From a virus: 64,000 bases of DNA. This document shows, one piece after another, positions 7,433 to 16,009 of the stretch. Within the stretch, counting starts at the first letter, position 1. Every line of letters starts with the position of its first letter. Under the pieces are notes generated by a model. It worked only from the letters and a program-made list of their open reading frames with translations, was not told the origin of the DNA and ran no database searches. The translations under genes were made by a program, and so were the position numbers. The DNA lies in IMG/VR virus record IMGVR_UViG_3300005590_000001, positions 64,001 to 128,000 of that record; one strand, given 5' to 3'.

Positions 7433-8057
7433 TACGGCAGGGAAAAATTCGTCCCAACCACTGCCGTAGAACAAACGGGACTACCCCTGAATTACAGGAG
7501 AAAAGAACAGACGGCGGAAATCCAGAAGTTAGTGTCCACTGAACCCATATATGTTTTTAGATTCCGAGTGGCTATTGTAGGATTTCGGCTATCTTGCCGA
7601 TAGAAACGGCGACTGATCCCAATCAATCAGAACGCGGGAATGTTGGATATCGCTGGACTCACCCGTAGGCTTTTGAGGATTCCCGAATTACTTCGCCGTG
7701 ATACTGTCTAATCAATACTCGGCCGAATATTGACACAGCACAAAAGTCGGCAAATCGCCGACAAACAAAATCGAACCGAGCCATTACCAAATGAGCCATT
7801 ATAGCCGATTCTAGTATAGTCGGAACATTCTCAAACTGATATCAATCTGAGAAGTCCTCTAGAATACTGACTGAGTAGGGAATCGAACCCTCAACTCGGT
7901 TCTTTCCAAAATCGCCGAACAAAAATTCTTGCAGTATTGCCGCAATAGCTTTTATCGGCGAAATCCCAAGGTGCAAGACTATCAGCATCAACCAACAAAA
8001 TGCACCTTATGCCTTACCACTGATCCAAACAGGGATCACTTATCGGCTATCCGCCAA
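7433..8057 (-). ncRNA. candidate large structured ncRNA-2 (~620 nt), family unassigned
   Basis: No credible ORF. Closing helix TGGCGGA/TCCGCCG; ATAGCCGAT/ATCGGCTAT; AAGGTGCA/TGCACCTT; TTCTCAGAT/GTTTGAGAA; GTCAATATTC/GAGTATTGAT; ACGGCGA/TCGCCGT; T-loop hairpin AGGG-TTCGATT-CCCT; most G-U pairs on the minus strand. Confidence 0.68.
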
Positions 8058-8059
8058 TG

Positions 8060-8323
8060 TTATGCAACCGGAATGCCAGTCTCAAAATGATGACTGCAAT
8101 TCGGATTGTCGCAAGTGACTTCGCAATTCAAGCACAGTTTGTTTGCTGCACCTAATTGCATCGGTCGCTGAATCGAGTGTAATTCTGCCGATCCAGCCGC
8201 CGATTCTCTGTCAACAACCTCTTGAGCGTCAGTTGAATTATTGAACGGACCCCACAATGTTGCACTACCATTAGCATTAACAACTGTGACGAACCAATCT
8301 CTATTCAAATGACTATCCAACAT
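8060..8323 (-). CDS. hypothetical protein with C-terminal Cys/His cluster
   Basis: GAGGAG RBS; CxxCxxxCxxxxCxH; directly upstream of ncRNA-2. Confidence 0.65.
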   Translation of the reverse strand: MLDSHLNRDWFVTVVNANGSATLWGPFNNSTDAQEVVDRESAAGSAELHSIQRPMQLGAANKLCLNCEVTCDNPNCSHHFETGIPVA

Positions 8324-8422
8324 GAAACACTCCTCAGAAACACAGCTTGCGAATGTCCGCCGATTGTTCTCTTTTCATGTAAATCCCGCCCGGCAAATGC
8401 CGGGCGGAATCCCAGACAACGC

Positions 8423-9058
8423 CTAGCTGTCGTCTTCGTCTTCGCCGAAATCGCCGAAGTCGAAATCGCCCATGACTTCGCCTGCGAGATTCGGTGCCCG
8501 CTTGCTGCGAAGATTGGTGTACTTCTTGACATTCTGTCGCAAAGCTACGGCAGCCTGTTCGTACAGATCCTCAGTGATATCGGTGAAACCAATATCCCGC
8601 AGACCCTCAACAGGATGAGCCACACGATCTTCGCCATCAAACGAATACTTGATGGAACTGGCGTCCTTTTCCATCGCGTTTCGAACTACCGTGTTCACGC
8701 CGCTTGTTCCGCGACCATCCACGATTCCGCCGAAGAACTTACGGCAGACCCCTTCGTAGATCTGATTCCGAGCGAATTCCAACGCACGATTCCACTGATC
8801 GCGGAAGATGTTACGTGGAATACCACCCAAACGCTTGTCCGGCAGCTTGCCATCCCAGCCGATCATTCGGCAGGCAACTTTCGGATTGGTCTCTCCGTTG
8901 ACCAGACAAAACGACGCAAAGTGCTGAAGCACGTATGCGTTAAACACTGGCGGGTCAACCGTTTCGTAATCACGAACACCCGGCTTTTCCCGCATTGCAG
9001 CAATGGAATTTTCCAAAGCTGCCGCGTACCATTCCTCAGTCTGTTTCGACACAGCCAT
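8423..9058 (-). CDS. hypothetical protein with acidic C-terminal tail
   Basis: GAGGAG RBS; ends DFDFGDFGEDEDDS; followed by the hairpin ccgcccggc-aaat-gccgggcgg. Confidence 0.75.
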   Translation of the reverse strand: MAVSKQTEEWYAAALENSIAAMREKPGVRDYETVDPPVFNAYVLQHFASFCLVNGETNPKVACRMIGWDGKLPDKRLGGIPRNIFRDQWNRALEFARNQIYEGVCRKFFGGIVDGRGTSGVNTVVRNAMEKDASSIKYSFDGEDRVAHPVEGLRDIGFTDITEDLYEQAAVALRQNVKKYTNLRSKRAPNLAGEVMGDFDFGDFGEDEDDS

Positions 9059-9101
9059 GAGAAAATCTCCTCAAAATGAGGTGAACAAAACTGTCCGACT
9101 A

Positions 9102-9410
9102 CTACGATTCGCCGAACAAAAATTCAGACAGAATGTCTTCGGTAATCGTACGATCACTCCTGACTTTCCGCCGTTTCTGTTTCCATGACAATCCCATTGA
9201 GGAACCATCAGAAAACCAATCCGTTACTTCGTCACCGAAGAACACTTTTGGAATGACCGTGCCATTCCATGCCGCGAACCGGACACACAAACGACCGTTC
9301 TCACGAAACAGGTCAGCAATCGCACACTTTTCGTGACTTTTGCCGTTAGATTCAACGATTGTGAACCGCCGGTTTTCCGCTTTTCGCGGGATTTTTAACC
9401 GTTTTCGCAC
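9102..9410 (-). CDS. hypothetical basic protein
   Basis: Start re-assigned to GTG (VRKRLK) after GGAG; the upstream extension is the TGTACA repeat tract. Confidence 0.6.
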   Translation of the reverse strand: MRKRLKIPRKAENRRFTIVESNGKSHEKCAIADLFRENGRLCVRFAAWNGTVIPKVFFGDEVTDWFSDGSSMGLSWKQKRRKVRSDRTITEDILSEFLFGES

Positions 9411-9598
9411 CGTTTTCTCCGTTTTGTTGTCGTTGTCGTTGTTTGTGGTTGTCTCTGTCGCCACCCTATAAGCTATGGAGGGCACGTTGTCCGGTTTTTC
9501 TGGCAGGATTTGACGCTGTAATTTTGAACACTGTACAAACGTTGTGCGGACACTTGAAAGGTGTACAGTGTACAAGCGTAAGGTGTGCAAATGTGAGG

Positions 9599-9668
9599 TG
9601 TACAGAGGTGGGGTCGACAAGTGTTAAGTGTACAAATGTTCATCTGTCGCGGACATTTGTCCCGCGAC
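9599..9668. repeat. ~68-bp imperfect direct repeat copy 1, ending in palindrome TCGCGGACATTTGTCCCGCGA
   Basis: tgtaca..gtggggt.gaca...tgtacaaatgttc....tcgcggacatttgtcccgcga; copy 2 at 11549-11617. Confidence 0.85.
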
Positions 9669-9712
9669 CGCCTGTACAGTGTACAAACGATCAGGAGAAC
9701 AAATGTTCAGTC

Positions 9713-9752
9713 AAACAAACCGCTCCCCTGTACAAGCGTACAGGGGAGGGTT
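9713..9752 (-). terminator. probable intrinsic terminator
   Basis: CTCCCCTGTAC-GCTT-GTACAGGGGAG followed by TTTGTTTG, just after the stop of the 536-aa gene. Confidence 0.6.
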
Positions 9753-9764
9753 GCTGTACAGATG

Positions 9765-11375
9765 TCAACTGTCTCTGCGATGGTTCAAACCACCATGCCG
9801 CCGATGACTGGGCACCTGTCCAGTGTATTGGAACATTGTACATTCGTCCATGCAGACGTGGTCCTCCATTTTCTTCTCTAGACTCTTGTACAGGTCCTTC
9901 AGGCGAGCGAAGTACGCTGAACGCTTGATCCGCCTGAACTTATGATCAGCGGCAATTCCGAGATCAGCGTCGCCGTTCTTTCGTAGACAATTGTACAGTG
10001 CCACGCGGCGGAACTTCTGATCGACATTCGGGAACATGCTGGACAGATGATCAGTGTGTTCGATCTGACTCTGCAAAAGAGCCAACTGGTTATCTGTCCA
10101 GTTCAGCGAATCGTCCATCATCATCTCATGAAGTGGAAACTTGTTCAGCTTGCCGTATTCGTCGTGAGTTCGGCGGACTGTATTCATGTACAGGTCCACG
10201 TGCTTCTCACGAGACTGACGATTCAGCATAGTGTACAAAGTTACACCGATGAACTTCAGGTTTCGCAGTGAACGGGTGTACACTACTTCCTGTGGTCTGG
10301 ACGATTGTCCAATTTGAATCCACGTCGGTTTCTGCTGGACAAATGTCCCGAAGATTCCGGTGGATTCTTCGTAACTGATCGGATGTTCAAGCGGACCTTC
10401 GAGCGAGGTCATTTTACTGAACTGACGTATATATGATTCGCTGCGGGACCGAATACTGAACTCGTGTCCAGTTTCCAAACATCTGAATCGAATTTCTTTC
10501 ACCTTGCGATTCTGTACAGTGTTCTTTTGATCAGTACGTCGGCTGACCGTTTCCATATCGACCACGTGGATTTTACTGTCCACACGTTCAACTGTACGTG
10601 CGACCAGATAGGCTTTTCCGCGGTCAGTCGGATCGAACCACCTGCACAGTGTTGAACAATTGTTCATCAAAAACGCTCGCTGGCAGGCGTCCTCAATATC
10701 ATCTCCGCTGAAAATTTGATCAGGGAGTTGCAACCCACTGGACACGCGTCCATCTCGCTGCTGATCCGGATTGAACATCTTTCCGCCCCGACCATGATTC
10801 GCGGTCCCGTCAGTGGAATGATGTACAGTAGTCCGTTCTCGCATCGAATTCAGCTTGGTGGACACGCGTTCACCCCGCTTCCGGTTCTGTGCATTGCAGA
10901 AATCGGCCACAAACGGATCACTGATCGCACGTATAGTGGTCAGAATCTTGATCTGTTCATCTGTATAGTGAATCCCGTTGTCGAGATTCGGTTCAGGTGA
11001 ACAATTGGACAGTGCCACGAACAAGCACCTTGCAGCACGAAGCGGCATTGTACATCTGTACACTGTCGGTCGTGCCATGAATCCGGTGCGTGTCCTGTAC
11101 AGTGTGAACCGAAGCATACGCTGGTCAGTTGTCCACGCGTTGTCCATATTGAGCATATGTTCAGCACAGTACCAATGATCAGTAACGTCATCGACCCACG
11201 CTGGACATTCGCTGTCCATAGACAGATGTTCAGCCATATCGGCGACTGAACCGATGTACACTGGAATTCCGGTATCTTCTGCCGCACGAATTGTGGGGAG
11301 CTGGCGGAATGCCTGCATTGACATTTGTTCACGTGTAACGCCTGTCATGGAAACGCCGGTTGGGAAACTGTTCAT
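9765..11375 (-). CDS. large orphan protein (~536 aa)
   Basis: Start re-assigned to MNSFPTG after GAGGAG; long uninterrupted frame; no family motif recognised. Confidence 0.7.
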   Translation of the reverse strand: MNSFPTGVSMTGVTREQMSMQAFRQLPTIRAAEDTGIPVYIGSVADMAEHLSMDSECPAWVDDVTDHWYCAEHMLNMDNAWTTDQRMLRFTLYRTRTGFMARPTVYRCTMPLRAARCLFVALSNCSPEPNLDNGIHYTDEQIKILTTIRAISDPFVADFCNAQNRKRGERVSTKLNSMRERTTVHHSTDGTANHGRGGKMFNPDQQRDGRVSSGLQLPDQIFSGDDIEDACQRAFLMNNCSTLCRWFDPTDRGKAYLVARTVERVDSKIHVVDMETVSRRTDQKNTVQNRKVKEIRFRCLETGHEFSIRSRSESYIRQFSKMTSLEGPLEHPISYEESTGIFGTFVQQKPTWIQIGQSSRPQEVVYTRSLRNLKFIGVTLYTMLNRQSREKHVDLYMNTVRRTHDEYGKLNKFPLHEMMMDDSLNWTDNQLALLQSQIEHTDHLSSMFPNVDQKFRRVALYNCLRKNGDADLGIAADHKFRRIKRSAYFARLKDLYKSLEKKMEDHVCMDECTMFQYTGQVPSHRRHGGLNHRRDS

Positions 11376-11548
11376 CTGTACACTCCTCAAAACAAGAGAG
11401 AAACGGTCGGCTGAACACATGTCCAGCCGCCCGGCAGACTGCCGGGAAACCCATTGTAGCAAGCTGTCCGGCAAAATCCACACAATTCGGGAAAGATTTT
11501 TACTGGAATATTGAACACTGTACAGACTATCAATGTACAAAGTGACAC

Positions 11549-11617
11549 TGTACAAGAGTGGGGTGGACATCTTTGCACTGTACAAATGTTCTCTCTCGCG
11601 GACATTTGTCCCGCGAG
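11549..11617. repeat. ~68-bp imperfect direct repeat copy 2 with palindrome
   Basis: See copy 1; the two copies bracket the 536-aa gene. Confidence 0.85.
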
Positions 11618-11675
11618 CACGTTAGAATCTGTGCCCACGGGCAGCCCGATTGCTGCCCGTTCTTACTTTTGAGAA

Positions 11676-12116
11676 TCAGCGTCGTTTGCGGCGTACTATT
11701 CTTTTGCAATCACACTTGCGTGCGGCGGCAAGAGCGGTTTTCTTGTCGATTCCCATTTCTTGCAATTCTTTTGCTTTGTCGAGAATCGACTGCATTCTGT
11801 ATTGGAATTCTTGTCTAGCTGGCGGGATATTCGTGCCATGATAATTAACCTTAATTTCATTTCCCGCTGGATACAACGATGCACCTTCTGGAACTCCCAG
11901 ATATGAGAATTCTCCATTGTGACGGAATGGTCTGTATCGTTGACGATCCTGTGCGAGATTCGGAAAGATTCCGAAAATCGTATATGTGTTTCGCTCATCT
12001 GACAGCAGATCACCAGCGTGAGACGCTGTGTATATTACGCGTTTGACGCCTTCGCGGTCTTTGAAGACGAAAACGAAATCGTACTTATGGTGACGGTAAT
12101 TTGCAGGAAACAACAT
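11676..12116 (-). CDS. hypothetical protein
   Basis: AGGAG RBS; basic C-terminus; followed by the hairpin acgggcagc..gctgcccgt. Confidence 0.7.
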   Translation of the reverse strand: MLFPANYRHHKYDFVFVFKDREGVKRVIYTASHAGDLLSDERNTYTIFGIFPNLAQDRQRYRPFRHNGEFSYLGVPEGASLYPAGNEIKVNYHGTNIPPARQEFQYRMQSILDKAKELQEMGIDKKTALAAARKCDCKRIVRRKRR

Positions 12117-12183
12117 TATTCAAACTCCTAAAACAGAGAAGGGAAACCACCCGCAGGATCCTGCGGGTGGTGGTCGTCAAGTC

Positions 12184-12411
12184 TTACAATCTTTCGATTG
12201 AGTGTATTACTTCATGCGGATCTGGATTTGATTCTGCCTTTCCGCGACACTGGATACAAACGTCCAGAATAGCATGGTCGAAAACTTTACCATCCTGCTG
12301 ACTGACTCCGGAAAAACAGACCCGGTATTTTTTCGGGCAGAGATTACAAACGTGGCATTTTCCCGGATACATCCGGTCAAGATAATTCAGAATTGCATCG
12401 TTTGATAGCAT
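12184..12411 (-). CDS. small Cys-rich protein
   Basis: Start re-assigned to MLSND after GAAGGT; CxxC motifs. Confidence 0.55.
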   Translation of the reverse strand: MLSNDAILNYLDRMYPGKCHVCNLCPKKYRVCFSGVSQQDGKVFDHAILDVCIQCRGKAESNPDPHEVIHSIERL

Positions 12412-12475
12412 TTCGTCACCTTCAGTTGAATGAAGACCACCCGCGGGACGTCCCGCGGGTGGTGGTCGCCAGATT

Positions 12476-12952
12476 CTACAGTTTCTCGATTGCGATCTCT
12501 GCCAAATTGGCATACGGATTGCCAATCCACAACTGAATGCCAGCATGCTTCGCTGTCAGCAGAGCCTGTTCATGCGTGAATTCACGCTCTTCGATTCCCC
12601 CGTTTTCCACAATTTGGACCACGATTTTCCCGTTAATGGGAAATACCATAATTCGCCGATTTTCATCGGCGACGATTCCGAAGCGATTGTCCCATCGTGA
12701 AAAGTGGGTGATTGCATACGGCGCAGCCTTGTCTTGATCCCTCAGTTCAAGATATCCCTTGGCGGTGATTTCGTTCAACTTTTCCTTGACACCATTGACA
12801 GCCATCGGACGACCAGTCTTGTCGTTGGGAAAAAATGTTCCCATTGTCCGCATTGCGGGTGGCTTTCCGTTCTCGAAAACGAATTTGCAGTAAACGTCCA
12901 AGAATCGCGCCTGTCGTTCCGTAAGTTTGTTTTCCGTTGCCTTGCGTTTCAT
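12476..12952 (-). CDS. LexA-type winged-HTH DNA-binding protein lacking the S24 peptidase domain
   Basis: LTERQ..FL......ENGKPP.MR.MG....GV.EKL..I..KGYLE fits the LexA N-terminal domain pattern LT.RQ....G.PP..RE........L..KGY; AGGAG RBS. Confidence 0.72.
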   Translation of the reverse strand: MKRKATENKLTERQARFLDVYCKFVFENGKPPAMRTMGTFFPNDKTGRPMAVNGVKEKLNEITAKGYLELRDQDKAAPYAITHFSRWDNRFGIVADENRRIMVFPINGKIVVQIVENGGIEEREFTHEQALLTAKHAGIQLWIGNPYANLAEIAIEKL

Positions 12953-13009
12953 CGTGTGAACTCCTGAAAAGAGAATGTTTGACGCGGTCGATTGCCGCGT
13001 TCTGCCCCT

Positions 13010-13037
13010 ATTCTAGCGACTGTTCTAGGATCGTCAA
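13010..13037 (-). promoter_or_regulatory. sigma70-type promoter
   Basis: TTGACG-16 nt-TAGAAT with AT-rich upstream DNA, preceding the LexA-like gene. Confidence 0.7.
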
Positions 13038-13133
13038 CAATAAAATTTTACTTTTGTGCAATGGACAAAATCACAGCTTGTTCCCATTTATAGGAATCTA
13101 AATTGTCACTATTGAGAATCCCGAAATTGAGAG

Positions 13134-13185
13134 GACCATTCCTATTTATAAGAATCTCGAAAATCGCGGACATTTGTCCCGCGAT
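13134..13185. repeat. cassette-boundary repeat (GACCATTCCTATTNATAAGAAT + CGCGGACATTTGTC palindrome), copy at 13134
   Basis: Second copy at 13550-13600. Confidence 0.8.
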
Positions 13186-13201
13186 CACGCATTTCCTTTT
13201 A

Positions 13202-13237
13202 CAAAGAAAAGAGCATCGGCCGATCTCCGATGCTCTT
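13202..13237 (-). terminator. intrinsic terminator
   Basis: AAGAGCATCGG-AGATCGG-CCGATGCTCTT-TTCTTT. Confidence 0.75.
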
Positions 13238-13248
13238 GGTCGTTTCGT

Positions 13249-13419
13249 TCAATCCTGCTTCCGGACCCTCAGGATCGTCGCTTCAGGGTATTCACTCCGA
13301 AACTTGTTCCGGGCATGCTGCTCGGATGACGCCTGAGTGACAAAATAAATTCCGTCAGCATTCTCGACACTGTACCGGGCATAAAGCTCCGGCCGATAAA
13401 CCCGTTCCTTTGTGTTCAT
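13249..13419 (-). CDS. small hypothetical protein (56 aa, below the ORF-track cutoff)
   Basis: AAGGA RBS; MNTKERVYRPELYARYSVENADGIYFVTQASSEQHARNKFRSEYPEATILRVRKQD; has its own promoter and terminator. Confidence 0.7.
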   Translation of the reverse strand: MNTKERVYRPELYARYSVENADGIYFVTQASSEQHARNKFRSEYPEATILRVRKQD

Positions 13420-13482
13420 GTTGTCTTTCCTTGTAAATCAGGAAACAAAGCGAATCACAGCGAAGTGCTGTGAACTGACACC

Positions 13483-13510
13483 ATATTAACGAGTGAATTC
13501 CGGTTGTCAA
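13483..13510 (-). promoter_or_regulatory. sigma70-type promoter
   Basis: TTGACA-16 nt-TAATAT. Confidence 0.68.
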
Positions 13511-13549
13511 CATAGCCTTATAAGAATTTTTTACTCCCAATTTTGGGAA

Positions 13550-13600
13550 GACCATTCCTATTGATAAGAATATATTCGCTCGCGGACATTTGTCTCCGCT
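13550..13600. repeat. cassette-boundary repeat, copy at 13550
   Basis: gaccattcctattgataagaat...tcgcggacatttgtc. Confidence 0.8.
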
Positions 13601-13674
13601 CGAAAACGCATAAACGCCCAAGAGATCTTGGACGAGAAAAGCCCGCGGGTTTCCCCGCGGGCTGGGTTCAGTTC

Positions 13675-14112
13675 TTATTCCAGTGGTCCGAGTTCATTCA
13701 CATCCCGAAAAATTGGCTGACACAATCGGAATTCTTGCTGTGTGCCATTCGGCCAGATTCTAAACTTCGCTCCCTCCTTCTCTCTGCAATCCATGCATAC
13801 GTTCCACATCGAATCGTTAATGTCATCATTATCAATCATCATCCCAACCCACATTCGGGTGCCGGTCAATCTGCTTCGCAGAAAATTGCGGATGATAGCA
13901 CTAGATACTGACGGGCCAGCTTTTGCTACAGGGTTGATATGGAACCACCGTACCCTGAGACCCACCTTGGTGGTTTCATAGGCAAGACACCCCGCCATTG
14001 CTCCATCAGGATACGCCATCACAACATAGTGCATATCCTGCGTCAGGAGTGATGCAGGAGCGCCCATATATTCGGCGACAGTGTCAGCAACTTCGAAATA
14101 TTCAAAAACCAT
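13675..14112 (-). CDS. putative GNAT-fold protein (degenerate)
   Basis: Start MVFEY after GGAG; VMA..DG.MAGCL.Y......L.V.WFHINP resembles GNAT strands beta2-beta4, but the canonical R/Q-x-x-G-x-G motif is absent. Confidence 0.4.
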   Translation of the reverse strand: MVFEYFEVADTVAEYMGAPASLLTQDMHYVVMAYPDGAMAGCLAYETTKVGLRVRWFHINPVAKAGPSVSSAIIRNFLRSRLTGTRMWVGMMIDNDDINDSMWNVCMDCREKEGAKFRIWPNGTQQEFRLCQPIFRDVNELGPLE

Positions 14113-14170
14113 GAGCGTTCTCCAAAAAACACCCGCGGGTTTCCCCGCGGGTGTCGATTCAGACCCAACC

Positions 14171-14461
14171 TTACAATTCAACTTCTGTCCGTGCTACGGT
14201 GTCAGCATTGAAACGGGCATGAATGCGGGCACCACCCGTTGTGCGGTCAACGCTGCATTGCATTGTGTGTGGCAATGCTGACTGAAACGCCGTGATAAAC
14301 GCGTCACAATCAACAACGTGAAACCCGATCACATTCCGGCTGATCCCGTCAGGGAATTGCAATTCCCAGACATCCGAATCCAGCACGGAAGCATATCCAG
14401 CACGGCGCAAAGTAGCGGCAAGCTGAATTTCACTTCGGTCGTCCACAATAGAAACGAGCAT
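14171..14461 (-). CDS. hypothetical protein
   Basis: 96-aa ORF between two repeat hairpins. Confidence 0.6.
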   Translation of the reverse strand: MLVSIVDDRSEIQLAATLRRAGYASVLDSDVWELQFPDGISRNVIGFHVVDCDAFITAFQSALPHTMQCSVDRTTGGARIHARFNADTVARTEVEL

Positions 14462-14515
14462 ATCAAACCCCTAAAAGAGACCCGCGGGTTTTCCCGCGGG
14501 TGGTGTGAAACTGCC

Positions 14516-14653
14516 TCACGCGAGGTAGTCGATAACTTCTTCAATCTTGGTCACTGTCCACTCTGACAACAAAACCAAGCCCCAAATTGGCATCACAAAC
14601 GCCAGCACAACTGACACTCCGATCAGAATCGGCAACTCAAACAAATCACGCAT
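14516..14653 (-). CDS. small membrane peptide (45 aa)
   Basis: Hand translation MRDLFELPILIGVSVVLAFVMPIWGLVLLSEWTVTKIEEVIDYLA, coupled to the upstream stop. Confidence 0.5.
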   Translation of the reverse strand: MRDLFELPILIGVSVVLAFVMPIWGLVLLSEWTVTKIEEVIDYLA

Positions 14654-14918
14654 CTTTCAACTCCCGTGGCCAGATAATGCTGACCGCATAATCGGCATCC
14701 CAACCGATTCGATTATTGGAAATCACAATTTGCCAGACTGCTTTGCGATTCTTCCGGGCATACCGTCGACGCTCCACGATGAACGTCTGACCCGCAAAGC
14801 TGATCTGCCTAGGTTGTCGGCGGAATTCGCTAAACTTGAAGACGACTGACCGGCCATCTTGGTGCTTCAATCCCCAGTGAGTATCGCTGGGATCCTGCGA
14901 AATATATCGCGTTGCCAT
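14646..14918 (-). CDS. hypothetical protein
   Basis: Start MATRY after AAGGG; first gene after the 14978-15005 promoter. Confidence 0.6.
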   Translation of the reverse strand: MATRYISQDPSDTHWGLKHQDGRSVVFKFSEFRRQPRQISFAGQTFIVERRRYARKNRKAVWQIVISNNRIGWDADYAVSIIWPRELKDA

Positions 14919-14977
14919 AATGTTGTTCCCTTTTGGGAAAGTATTGTTCGCTGTGACCGTCACAGCACTGAGCACCA

Positions 14978-15005
14978 ATTATAACATCGGCAGGAACAAT
15001 CGCAA
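14978..15005 (-). promoter_or_regulatory. sigma70-type promoter with extended -10
   Basis: TTGCGA-16 nt (ending TGT)-TATAAT. Confidence 0.7.
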
Positions 15006-15181
15006 GGCTTTAGTTTTATTTTCTCGTTTGTGTCGTAAGTAGTTGGGACATAACGGCTTAGGGCGGGGTTTTTCATTCTCAAAAATGGTTTTGTGGGGAG
15101 GGCCGGAATCGCCGGGGCCTCAACACACGAACTTCAGCACTTTCCCCACAACATCCGCGGACATCTGCGGGCAACCCCAAT

Positions 15182-15215
15182 AAAAAAGGCCATGTCACCT
15201 TATGATGACACAGCC
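15182..15215 (-). terminator. intrinsic terminator
   Basis: GGCTGTGTCATC-ATAA-GGTGACATGGCC-TTTTTT. Confidence 0.75.
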
Positions 15216-15245
15216 CTATCATTGTTCAACATCCTCTAAATTTTT

Positions 15246-15461
15246 TTACTCGTTTTGGTCCAAAGTCCTAAAAACAACTGATGATGTTTCATTATGTACA
15301 TACACAATGTCGCCACAGCCCCAACTTCCAGCCTTGATGACTTTGGACTCTTTGTATCCATCTTTTCCAATATAAGAAGTAACTTTGAGATCCTTTTTCA
15401 ACTCTTTCTTCGGAAATCTAGGTATTTTACGCATTTGCATCGGTCGCTTCCCCTTCCCCAA
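15246..15461 (-). CDS. small basic hypothetical protein
   Basis: Overlaps the upstream gene; start uncertain. Confidence 0.5.
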   Translation of the reverse strand: MGKGKRPMQMRKIPRFPKKELKKDLKVTSYIGKDGYKESKVIKAGSWGCGDIVYVHNETSSVVFRTLDQNE

Positions 15462-15864
15462 CGTTCATTGGGCTGCTATCGAGATCATATCCCGGAGAAT
15501 TACCGTCCCAATGAACGTTGTACCACTCATTTTTAGACATAATCTTCTCAGCCTGTGACTTTGATATGTTGTAACGTGCCATTAAGTCAGACACCTCACT
15601 GCCTCTAGCAGCAGAACGCCGTACTTTCTGGGCCTTACAAAACATAGAATAGCGATACTCTGCCTTCTCGGCCCGTGCTTTCGCGCGGACCTTCGAATCT
15701 GAAGTCCGCGCGCCTTTAATTACTGGTGTAGTCAAAGCTCTTTCACCAAGCCATCCACGTTTTGCACGCTTCACAAGTATATCTCTCGTGAGTTCAGGGT
15801 GAATTCGAGAATCTTCGAGCCAGTCCTCTATAGCCTTATCTGCACCAAATGCTTGCAAGTTCAT
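15427..15864 (-). CDS. putative DNA-binding (HTH) protein
   Basis: EDW......L..R..RGW..ERALTTP helix motif seen in phage HNH DNA-binding tails, plus C-terminal DLMARYNISKSQAEKI HTH. Confidence 0.5.
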   Translation of the reverse strand: MNLQAFGADKAIEDWLEDSRIHPELTRDILVKRAKRGWLGERALTTPVIKGARTSDSKVRAKARAEKAEYRYSMFCKAQKVRRSAARGSEVSDLMARYNISKSQAEKIMSKNEWYNVHWDGNSPGYDLDSSPMNVGEGEATDANA

Positions 15865-16009
15865 CTTTTCTCCTAATTATTTTATAAAAATTTACCGAAA
15901 GTAAGAAAATCGTAAATATTTTAAAAATTTCGGGTAATAATAAGTGTACGGCGATTCGGACATCTGCCGACTACAAATAATTACGCAAATTTTCAGGAGA
16001 ATATTAAAA

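Follow-up and report, generated by a model that had tools for sequence, protein, structure and literature searches.

Comparative sequence evidence indicates that positions 7433 to 8057 (minus strand; 625 nt) in the genome of an uncultured phage of ~172 kb are a real structured RNA, with a covariation backing of its middle and 3' parts that is good but thin. The locus is previously undescribed, and its conserved part is smaller and more modular than the initial annotation had proposed. The region is noncoding, its strand is set, domain B, core C, and the 3' segment each have a defined fold, the whole is modular, and a tRNA-like element is linked to it. All positions refer to the window, the whole stretch of 64,000 nt that was analyzed, which corresponds to bases 64,001 to 128,000 of an IMG/VR virus record of 171,987 bp with direct terminal repeats.

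Genomic setting

From window position 1 to ~15,900, every gene lies on the minus strand with short gaps in between. This block of small genes has a G+C content of 41 to 54% (window positions ~2000 to 16000), compared to ~33 to 38% elsewhere in the genome, and tRNA genes called by Rfam and ARAGORN are scattered across it. The two programs disagree in places: a tRNA at 1387 to 1458 (minus) is called by Rfam (46.8 bits) and not by ARAGORN, while a tRNA-Ile(UAU) at 1736 to 1808 (minus), called by ARAGORN, is absent from the whole-window Rfam search at the gathering score and reaches 38.9 bits (cutoff, 29) only in the permissive E-value search.

The candidate RNA lies between an 87-amino-acid (aa), Cys-rich gene and a tRNA-Asn-like gene. 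As initially described, it begins 2 nt past the stop codon of the upstream open reading frame (8060 to 8323, minus), which encodes the 87-aa protein and for which no Pfam or PHROG family was matched. Farther upstream, a 211-aa gene of unassigned family (8423 to 9058, minus) shows 62% protein identity between phages that are 98 to 100% identical on both sides, with five database variants at 43 to 67% identity; from these comparisons, it looks like a hypervariable or often-swapped gene.

Each of the six frames of 7433 to 8057 contains stop codons of several kinds (two or three), so that no single codon reassignment opens the region, and coding under an altered genetic code is excluded. Independent gene callers leave the homologous gaps empty in all lineages. 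The promoter and terminator searches at the locus returned nothing significant, with site counts the same as in shuffled sequences.

Relatives of the locus

Three lineages (A, B, and C) are informative, giving two to three distinct sequences per module. Lineage A is this phage with near-identical contigs. Lineage B, found via the downstream 123-aa gene, is represented by L004, a 163,692-bp JGI contig, plus copies; its two variants are one base apart, and its gap between a 213-aa gene and the tRNA-like element spans 507 nt, is gene free, and folds with a z-score of -4.5. Lineage C is L010, a 3.8-kb Logan contig found by exhaustive profile search. A 27.6-kb contig (L002/L003/L008/L013) is uninformative for covariation because it is 99.5% identical across the RNA region. 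The flanking proteins are 43 to 73% identical among lineages, and searches with them retrieved lineages A, A', B, and C only, plus a 1-kb fragment that stops short of the RNA. The 87-aa gene is present in lineages A and C, where its homolog is the 83-aa gene of L010 (29% identity; E value, 6e-13), and is missing from the corresponding place in lineage B.

At the nucleotide level, blastn against 50,697 phage records gave no match to the RNA region, and exact-pattern scans of viral, metagenome, and genome contigs with three conserved motifs returned the near-identical 27.6-kb contig only or nothing. A D-arm pattern search matched an unrelated tRNA-Cys of a 314-kb phage. The Rfam/Infernal check called for by the initial annotation was run with cmscan on the whole window at the gathering score and on 6800 to 8600 at E values up to 10, and no family matches 7433 to 8057; this includes group I and II introns and self-cleaving ribozymes, for which no match lies within the region at E values up to 10. 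In lineage B, Rfam reports a tmRNA match of only 136 nt (L004, 8955 to 9090, plus; 49 bits for a gathering score of 47).

The RNA region is single copy, with no paralog or common domain elsewhere in the genome. Its lack of similarity to the other candidate RNA, at 2844 to 3525, noted at the outset, holds, and a 14-nt complementarity between the two was discarded as being at chance level (E value of 0.33 within the genome alone). That other candidate contains a subthreshold Twister-sister match (3237 to 3328, minus; 29.2 bits for a gathering score of 34; E value of 0.0004 in an 801-nt search). This match retains the conserved blocks GCAAGGCC, GUGUAAGCC, and GGCGCU but is missing one of the model's hairpins, and two of its four outer stem pairs are nonstandard.

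Module organization

Lineage A carries, in order, the 87-aa gene, a 5' domain, hairpin A, domain B, a terminator-like hairpin, hairpin H, core C, the 3' segment, the pseudoknot module, and the tRNA-like element. Of these, lineage B is devoid of the 87-aa gene, the pseudoknot module, the 5' domain, and hairpin H. In lineage C, it is hairpin A, domain B, and core C that are missing, while the 83-aa homolog accompanies hairpin H, the 3' segment, the pseudoknot module, and the tRNA-like element. What all three lineages share is limited to the 3' segment and the tRNA-like element. In place of the single closed fold of ~620 nt proposed initially, we find a chain of modules that are present or absent depending on the lineage, and the helices thought to close the fold are not conserved.

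The 5' domain (7968 to 8057, minus; 90 nt) is found in lineage A only, without a counterpart in L004 or L010, and is predicted to form two hairpins in addition to carrying the UGGCGGA and AUAGCCGAU strands discussed below. Hairpin A (7908 to 7967, minus) consists of a CGCCGA/UCGGCG (TCGSCGA) pair and an apical hairpin. A hairpin with the central G and C swapped occupies the corresponding place in lineage B, and MAFFT does not align the two in register (structure conservation index [SCI] of 0.03). A 17-nt exact direct repeat (7912 to 7928 and 9109 to 9125, both minus; E value of 0.005 within the genome), with TCGGCGA in both copies, is found in the 3' side of hairpin A and again at the end of the open reading frame at 9102 to 9620.

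Domain B (7773 to 7902, minus; 130 nt) is a multihelix domain closed by GAACCGAG/CUCGGUUC (7902 to 7895 with 7780 to 7773). It includes the isolated tRNA-type T-arm of the initial annotation, AGGG-UUCGAUU-CCCU, which indeed lies at 7891 to 7877 (minus) and whose T-loop is kept between lineages (UUCGAUU in A and UUCAAUU in B). A 7-bp helix, AUUCUAG/CUAGAAU (7865 to 7859 with 7814 to 7808, minus), encloses a long hairpin, and a small covarying hairpin, GGCUA/UGGCU, follows at 7806 to 7794 (minus).

Between domain B and core C, lineage A alone has a terminator-like hairpin, GUCGGC-GAUUU-GCCGAC followed by UUUUG (7746 to 7762, minus). Terminator-like sites are no more common than in shuffles, and the 5' strand of this hairpin is the counterpart of the core-closing strand in lineage B. 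Hairpin H (7704 to 7743, minus), a long hairpin with a GGCC loop, occurs in lineages A and C and not in B. It is 86% identical to L010 positions 2560 to 2596; both versions fold, that of lineage C having C-G in place of one U-A pair and containing one mismatch. At 7693 to 7762 (minus) in lineage A, the terminator-like hairpin and hairpin H together make up ~55 nt that lie between two CGGCGA copies where lineage B has a single copy. From its sequence, this segment looks like an insertion with target duplication or a recombination joint.

Core C (7606 to 7699, minus; ~95 nt) is a three-way junction closed by ACGGCGA/UCGCCGU that contains CGGGAAU/AUUCCCG, CUC-GCC(UACG)GGU-GAG, and the hairpin CUGAU(UGAUUGGG)AUCAG; a pairing of its invariant UUGGG loop with its invariant UCCAA bulge is conceivable. 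In the 3' segment (7511 to 7605, minus), an outer helix, GAAAUCC/GGAUUUC, surrounds the hairpin CCACU.../...AGUGG, and the 3' part retains the conserved sequence ACACUAAC..CUGGAUUYCCGCCGU. The 3' module (7433 to 7510, minus), present in A and C only, comprises a small hairpin, CCUG/CAGG, followed by a candidate H-type pseudoknot.

At 18 of 21 positions, the 87-aa gene leader (8331 to 8375, minus; GAAAAGAGAACAAUCGGCGGA) is complementary to UCCGCCGUCUGUUCUUUUCUC, which belongs to the 3' segment (7501 to 7550, minus). At -40.1 kcal/mol, compared to a mean of -17.9 kcal/mol, it is the best of 3,191 windows across 16 kb of lineage A. We rejected a conserved long-range helix between the leader and the 3' segment, this pairing being the top window in lineage A and not in lineage B or C.

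Covariation and strand

The sequences were aligned with MAFFT without structure fitting, and the pairs of the derived helices were counted and compared with controls in which one partner was slid; hairpin A and the pseudoknot module, being out of register in these alignments, were compared by hand. Across domain B, core C, and the 3' segment, 18 base pairs are changed on both sides (10, 4, and 4, respectively), compared to 0 or 1 in slid controls. The homolog covariation named as a check in the initial annotation is therefore present. Compensatory changes in excess of controls, the general sign of a conserved structured RNA, were thus found here with two to three distinct sequences per module.

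In domain B, all 26 pairs are paired in lineages A and B, with 10 double changes, whereas six slid controls had none and only 29 to 50% pairing. The closing helix has another sequence in lineage B (5 double changes), and the 7-bp helix is replaced by AUCUUGU/ACAAGAU (4 double changes). RNAalifold yields a z-score of -3.2 for this domain, which was reached by 1 of 200 column shuffles. All 23 pairs of core C are likewise maintained, with 4 double changes and 2 one-sided (G.U) changes, against no double changes in slid controls; here, the SCI is 0.96 and the z-score is -4.2, a value attained by none of 200 column shuffles. As for the 3' segment, the outer helix retains its 7 pairs in each of the three lineages, one of them changed on both sides and one on a single side, and the inner helix reads CCACU/AGUGG versus CUGCC/GGCAG, accounting for 3 double changes.

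The initial assignment of a structured RNA to the minus strand was made by majority evidence and is borne out by the alignments: in domain B and core C, all 98 of 98 cells are standard pairs on the minus strand, 7 of them G.U and none A.C. Since these seven cells would be A.C on the plus strand, they set the strand and point to RNA rather than to the symmetry of duplex DNA.

The 3' pseudoknot claimed initially also has a counterpart in another lineage. In lineage A, the hairpin UACGGCAG/CUGCCGUA lies at 7468 to 7433, and its loop UGGGAC (7456 to 7451) is complementary to GUCCCG (7481 to 7476). Lineage C has CAACGGAG/CUCCGUUG for the stem and GCCCCA/UGGGGC for the loop pairing, at nearly equal spacing and equal geometry; one U-A pair has become C-G, and one G.U pair has become A-U. 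All 8 of 8 stem pairs are maintained between the differing sequences of A and C. The loop pairing is attained by 40% of shuffles in lineage A and 3.8% in lineage C, each weak alone; the pseudoknot is a candidate.

The long-range closing helices fared less well. Complementarity of UGGCGGA (8056 to 8050) with UCCGCCG (7518 to 7512) is present as placed, but this 7-bp helix is not conserved: lineage B offers only GCGGCG/CGCCGU in a shifted register, and 2 nt of the pairing coincide with the 3' strand of the conserved outer helix. The 9-bp pairing of AUAGCCGAU (8050 to 8042) with AUCGGCUAU (7809 to 7801), said to close a 5' domain of ~250 nt, can likewise be found at its place, but its 5' strand has no equivalent in lineage B, and its 3' strand shares bases with the covarying 7-bp helix as well as with the conserved hairpin GGCUA/UGGCU. 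Since the motif family of these two strands has four copies in lineage A, the 9-bp pairing is one among several possible.

Folding energy and palindromes

The minimum free energy (MFE) of the region is -216.8 kcal/mol on the minus strand (z-score of -5.4 with 20 shuffles and -5.2 on repeat) and -172.7 kcal/mol on the plus strand (z-score of -3.9), a difference of 44 kcal/mol in favor of the minus strand. Five coding controls of 625 nt from the same block have z-scores of -2.8 to -5.0, three of them reaching -4.7 to -5.0, whereas seven late-gene controls of the same length range from +0.4 to -1.4. Because coding neighbors are equally extreme, the MFE z-score was discarded as proof of a structured RNA, and the evidence for structure rests on covariation. 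The early minus-strand block, coding sequences included, is unusually rich in secondary structure or palindromes. With the supported helices imposed, the fold loses only 9 of 242 kcal/mol in stability.

The 625 nt contain 5 copies each of GCCGA and TCGGC, for ~0.5 expected, and 3 copies of TCGSCGA, for 0.2 expected; in the entire window, TCGSCGA is found 36 times, for 4.4 expected from dinucleotide shuffles (shuffle maximum, 12). Several interchangeable pairings are therefore possible. The initial annotation had warned that its helices might be explained simply by an excess of TCGSCGA palindromes. These counts justify the caveat, which applies to hairpin A and to the long-range pairings; it does not extend to the covarying helices, which mostly do not consist of these motifs.

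The tRNA-Asn-like element

Overlooked in the initial annotation, a degenerate tRNA-Asn(GUU)-like gene (7359 to 7431, minus; Rfam tRNA, RF00005) abuts the 3' end of the RNA. Equivalent elements at L004 5877 to 5949 and L010 2778 to 2850 form a cloverleaf in relaxed ARAGORN, and the element adjoins the RNA directly in all three lineages. Its Rfam score in lineage A is 29.4 bits for a cutoff of 29, and it goes unreported in L004 and L010 at E values of <0.1; default ARAGORN misses it, and it is drawn only at a relaxed threshold (-ps90) in all three lineages. The cloverleaf is full and has no encoded CCA, the acceptor stem has two mismatches at its base, and the T stem has 4 bp. The anticodon loops are CCGUUUAU in lineage A (8 nt, with GUUU), CCGUUUU in B (7 nt), and CGGUUAU in C (7 nt), position 33 being C or G in all three, so that none has the 7-nt loop with U33 and a purine at position 37 that is expected of a tRNA.

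The element is the most conserved part of the locus, with its stems kept and an identity of 86% between lineages B and C; conservation of the flanking proteins is much lower (43 to 73%). The match of lineage A to lineage C (74% over 252 nt) spans the 3' segment, the pseudoknot module, and the tRNA-like element. No other tRNA-Asn is found among the seven tRNAs that ARAGORN detects in the genome; the element is thus possibly an odd working tRNA or a mimic, and it may be the phage's own odd tRNA-Asn.

Discussion

With a confidence slightly better than even for the explanation as a whole, we favor a multidomain phage noncoding RNA that is made within one precursor, released by RNase P, and equipped with factor-binding domains. 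The minus-strand RNA would fold into a chain of hairpin A, domain B, core C, the 3' stem-loop segment, and a hairpin or pseudoknot cap, and it would be made together with the tRNA-Asn-like element. A cut by RNase P at the 5' side of that element would leave a stable RNA of ~0.5 to 0.6 kb, whose 3' end would be shielded by the terminal hairpin or pseudoknot. The domains may act as binding surfaces, as a scaffold or a decoy, for phage or host factors, and domain B may mimic a tRNA elbow by docking its T-loop on the GG-containing strand at 7793 to 7781. We propose the precursor and RNase P steps because of the abutting arrangement and of the known RNAs of phage tRNA clusters; single-unit transcription, processing by RNase P, a role in trans, and T-loop docking are each inferred. 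The dispensability of modules across lineages B and C speaks against one machine and better fits loosely joined elements.

The main rival to a free RNA is a cis-acting structured spacer, an explanation that we consider unlikely but well worth keeping in view. The region would then belong to an early polycistronic transcript, serving there both as 3' untranslated region to the 87-aa gene and as 5' leader to the tRNA-like element, and would govern processing, stability, or translation through, e.g., RNase III or RNase E sites or exonuclease blocks. The run of same-strand genes with short gaps from window position 1 to 15,900, the gain and loss of modules between lineages (including the loss of domains in lineage C), and the equally unusual structure of the coding neighbors all agree with such a spacer, as does the pairing of the 87-aa gene leader (8375 to 8331) with the 3' segment in lineage A, except that this pairing is not the top window in lineage B or C. 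On the other hand, lineage B retains domain B and core C without the 87-aa gene, and multiway junctions with long-range covarying helices exceed the known processing hairpins of phages in complexity.

A bolder proposal, which we regard as improbable, is that the locus represents a new family of large, multidomain phage RNAs in which a conserved end, a nondecoding mimic of tRNA-Asn, and the T-loop domain engage host tRNA-handling proteins, while the upstream modules are exchangeable cargo, the whole acting as a decoy or scaffold. The proteins engaged would be RNase P, modification enzymes, anticodon nucleases, or other tRNA-targeting defenses.

It is very improbable that the region is a DNA-level element, such as a replication origin, a packaging site, or an array of protein-binding palindromes, with the helices as by-products. 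The excess of TCGSCGA in the window and its three copies here, the roughly 10-fold enrichment of GCCGA and TCGGC, and the fact that the plus strand also beats its shuffles would suit it. Yet the covarying helices lie mostly outside these motifs, their sequences change while pairing stays, and the seven G.U cells would be A.C on the other strand. Moreover, the GC skew turns at window position ~16,000 and not at 7433 to 8057, and so does not indicate an origin at the RNA region, and the region is single copy. Least probable of all is a decayed tRNA gene array, with the T-loop hairpin, the D-loop-like UUGGUAAU, and the adjoining degenerate tRNA as functionless remnants: the T-arm at 7891 to 7877 is perfect, the neighboring tRNA-like gene is degenerate, and tRNA genes are dispersed in the block, but 7433 to 8057 holds no further cloverleaf or Rfam tRNA even at an E value of 10, the second GGUUCGAUU forms the 3' half of the covarying closing helix of domain B, and the compensatory changes reflect selection for the present pairings.

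The nearest known kind of RNA is the ROOL/GOLLD group, which comprises large, ornate RNAs from bacteria and phages (Weinberg et al. 2017, PMC5737381). ROOL is a large RNA of 581 nt on average, associated with phages and prophages and of unknown function (PMC5737381). Both ROOL and GOLLD are found near tRNA genes, with suspected cotranscription, and contain multistem junctions and pseudoknots (PMC5737381); their structures have been studied by cryo-electron microscopy (PMC12286853). ROOL and GOLLD form homo-oligomers made of RNA alone. The present RNA resembles them in size class, in its many junctions and a pseudoknot (a candidate here), in its phage location, and in its proximity to tRNA genes, lying as it does in a 171,987-bp virus record beside an abutting tRNA-like gene. 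Membership nevertheless fails on the covariance models: those of ROOL (RF03087) and of GOLLD, which we take to be RF01998, gave no match in the whole window at the gathering score or in 6800 to 8600 at an E value of 10. Furthermore, the present RNA is known from one small phage clade only, and its domains come and go between lineages, whereas ROOL and GOLLD each keep one consensus architecture.

For an RNase P-released multidomain RNA, the stable RNAs of phage T4 and the MALAT1/mascRNA system would be the closest mechanistic analogies. The T4 RNAs rnaC and rnaD (species 1 and 2), whose function is unknown, are encoded among or next to tRNA genes, have tRNA-like ends, measure ~140 nt, and are matured by the tRNA processing enzymes out of precursors shared with the tRNAs. 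The adjacency to tRNA genes is alike, whereas maturation from a shared precursor is only proposed in our case, and the present region is 4 to 5 times larger, multidomain, and unrelated in sequence. In MALAT1/mascRNA, the RNase P cut at a downstream tRNA-like fold makes the 3' end of the upstream RNA, which is capped by a triple helix. There, too, a long structured RNA is followed by a tRNA-like fold; that system, however, is eukaryotic and nuclear, while here the cleavage is postulated and the cap would be a hairpin or a pseudoknot. Reminiscent of the locus as well are the 3' ends of the TMV and TYMV genomes, where a pseudoknot domain precedes a tRNA-like structure that is aminoacylated. A pseudoknot module (a candidate here) immediately 5' of a tRNA-like fold is the shared feature, but these are the ends of RNA virus genomes, as opposed to a DNA phage gene with a full cloverleaf and no encoded CCA.

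The value of the locus is limited by the small size of the clade. Large phage RNAs such as GOLLD and ROOL, often encoded beside tRNA genes, belong to the small number of RNA classes still lacking an assigned function, and the present locus provides an example that is unrelated to them and in which the link to a tRNA-like element is physical, the two being abutting. Domain B (~130 nt) and core C (~95 nt), whose folds are both small and well supported, are good subjects for probing or structure work, and the natural variants lacking domains constitute a ready-made deletion series for finding which parts of the RNA matter.
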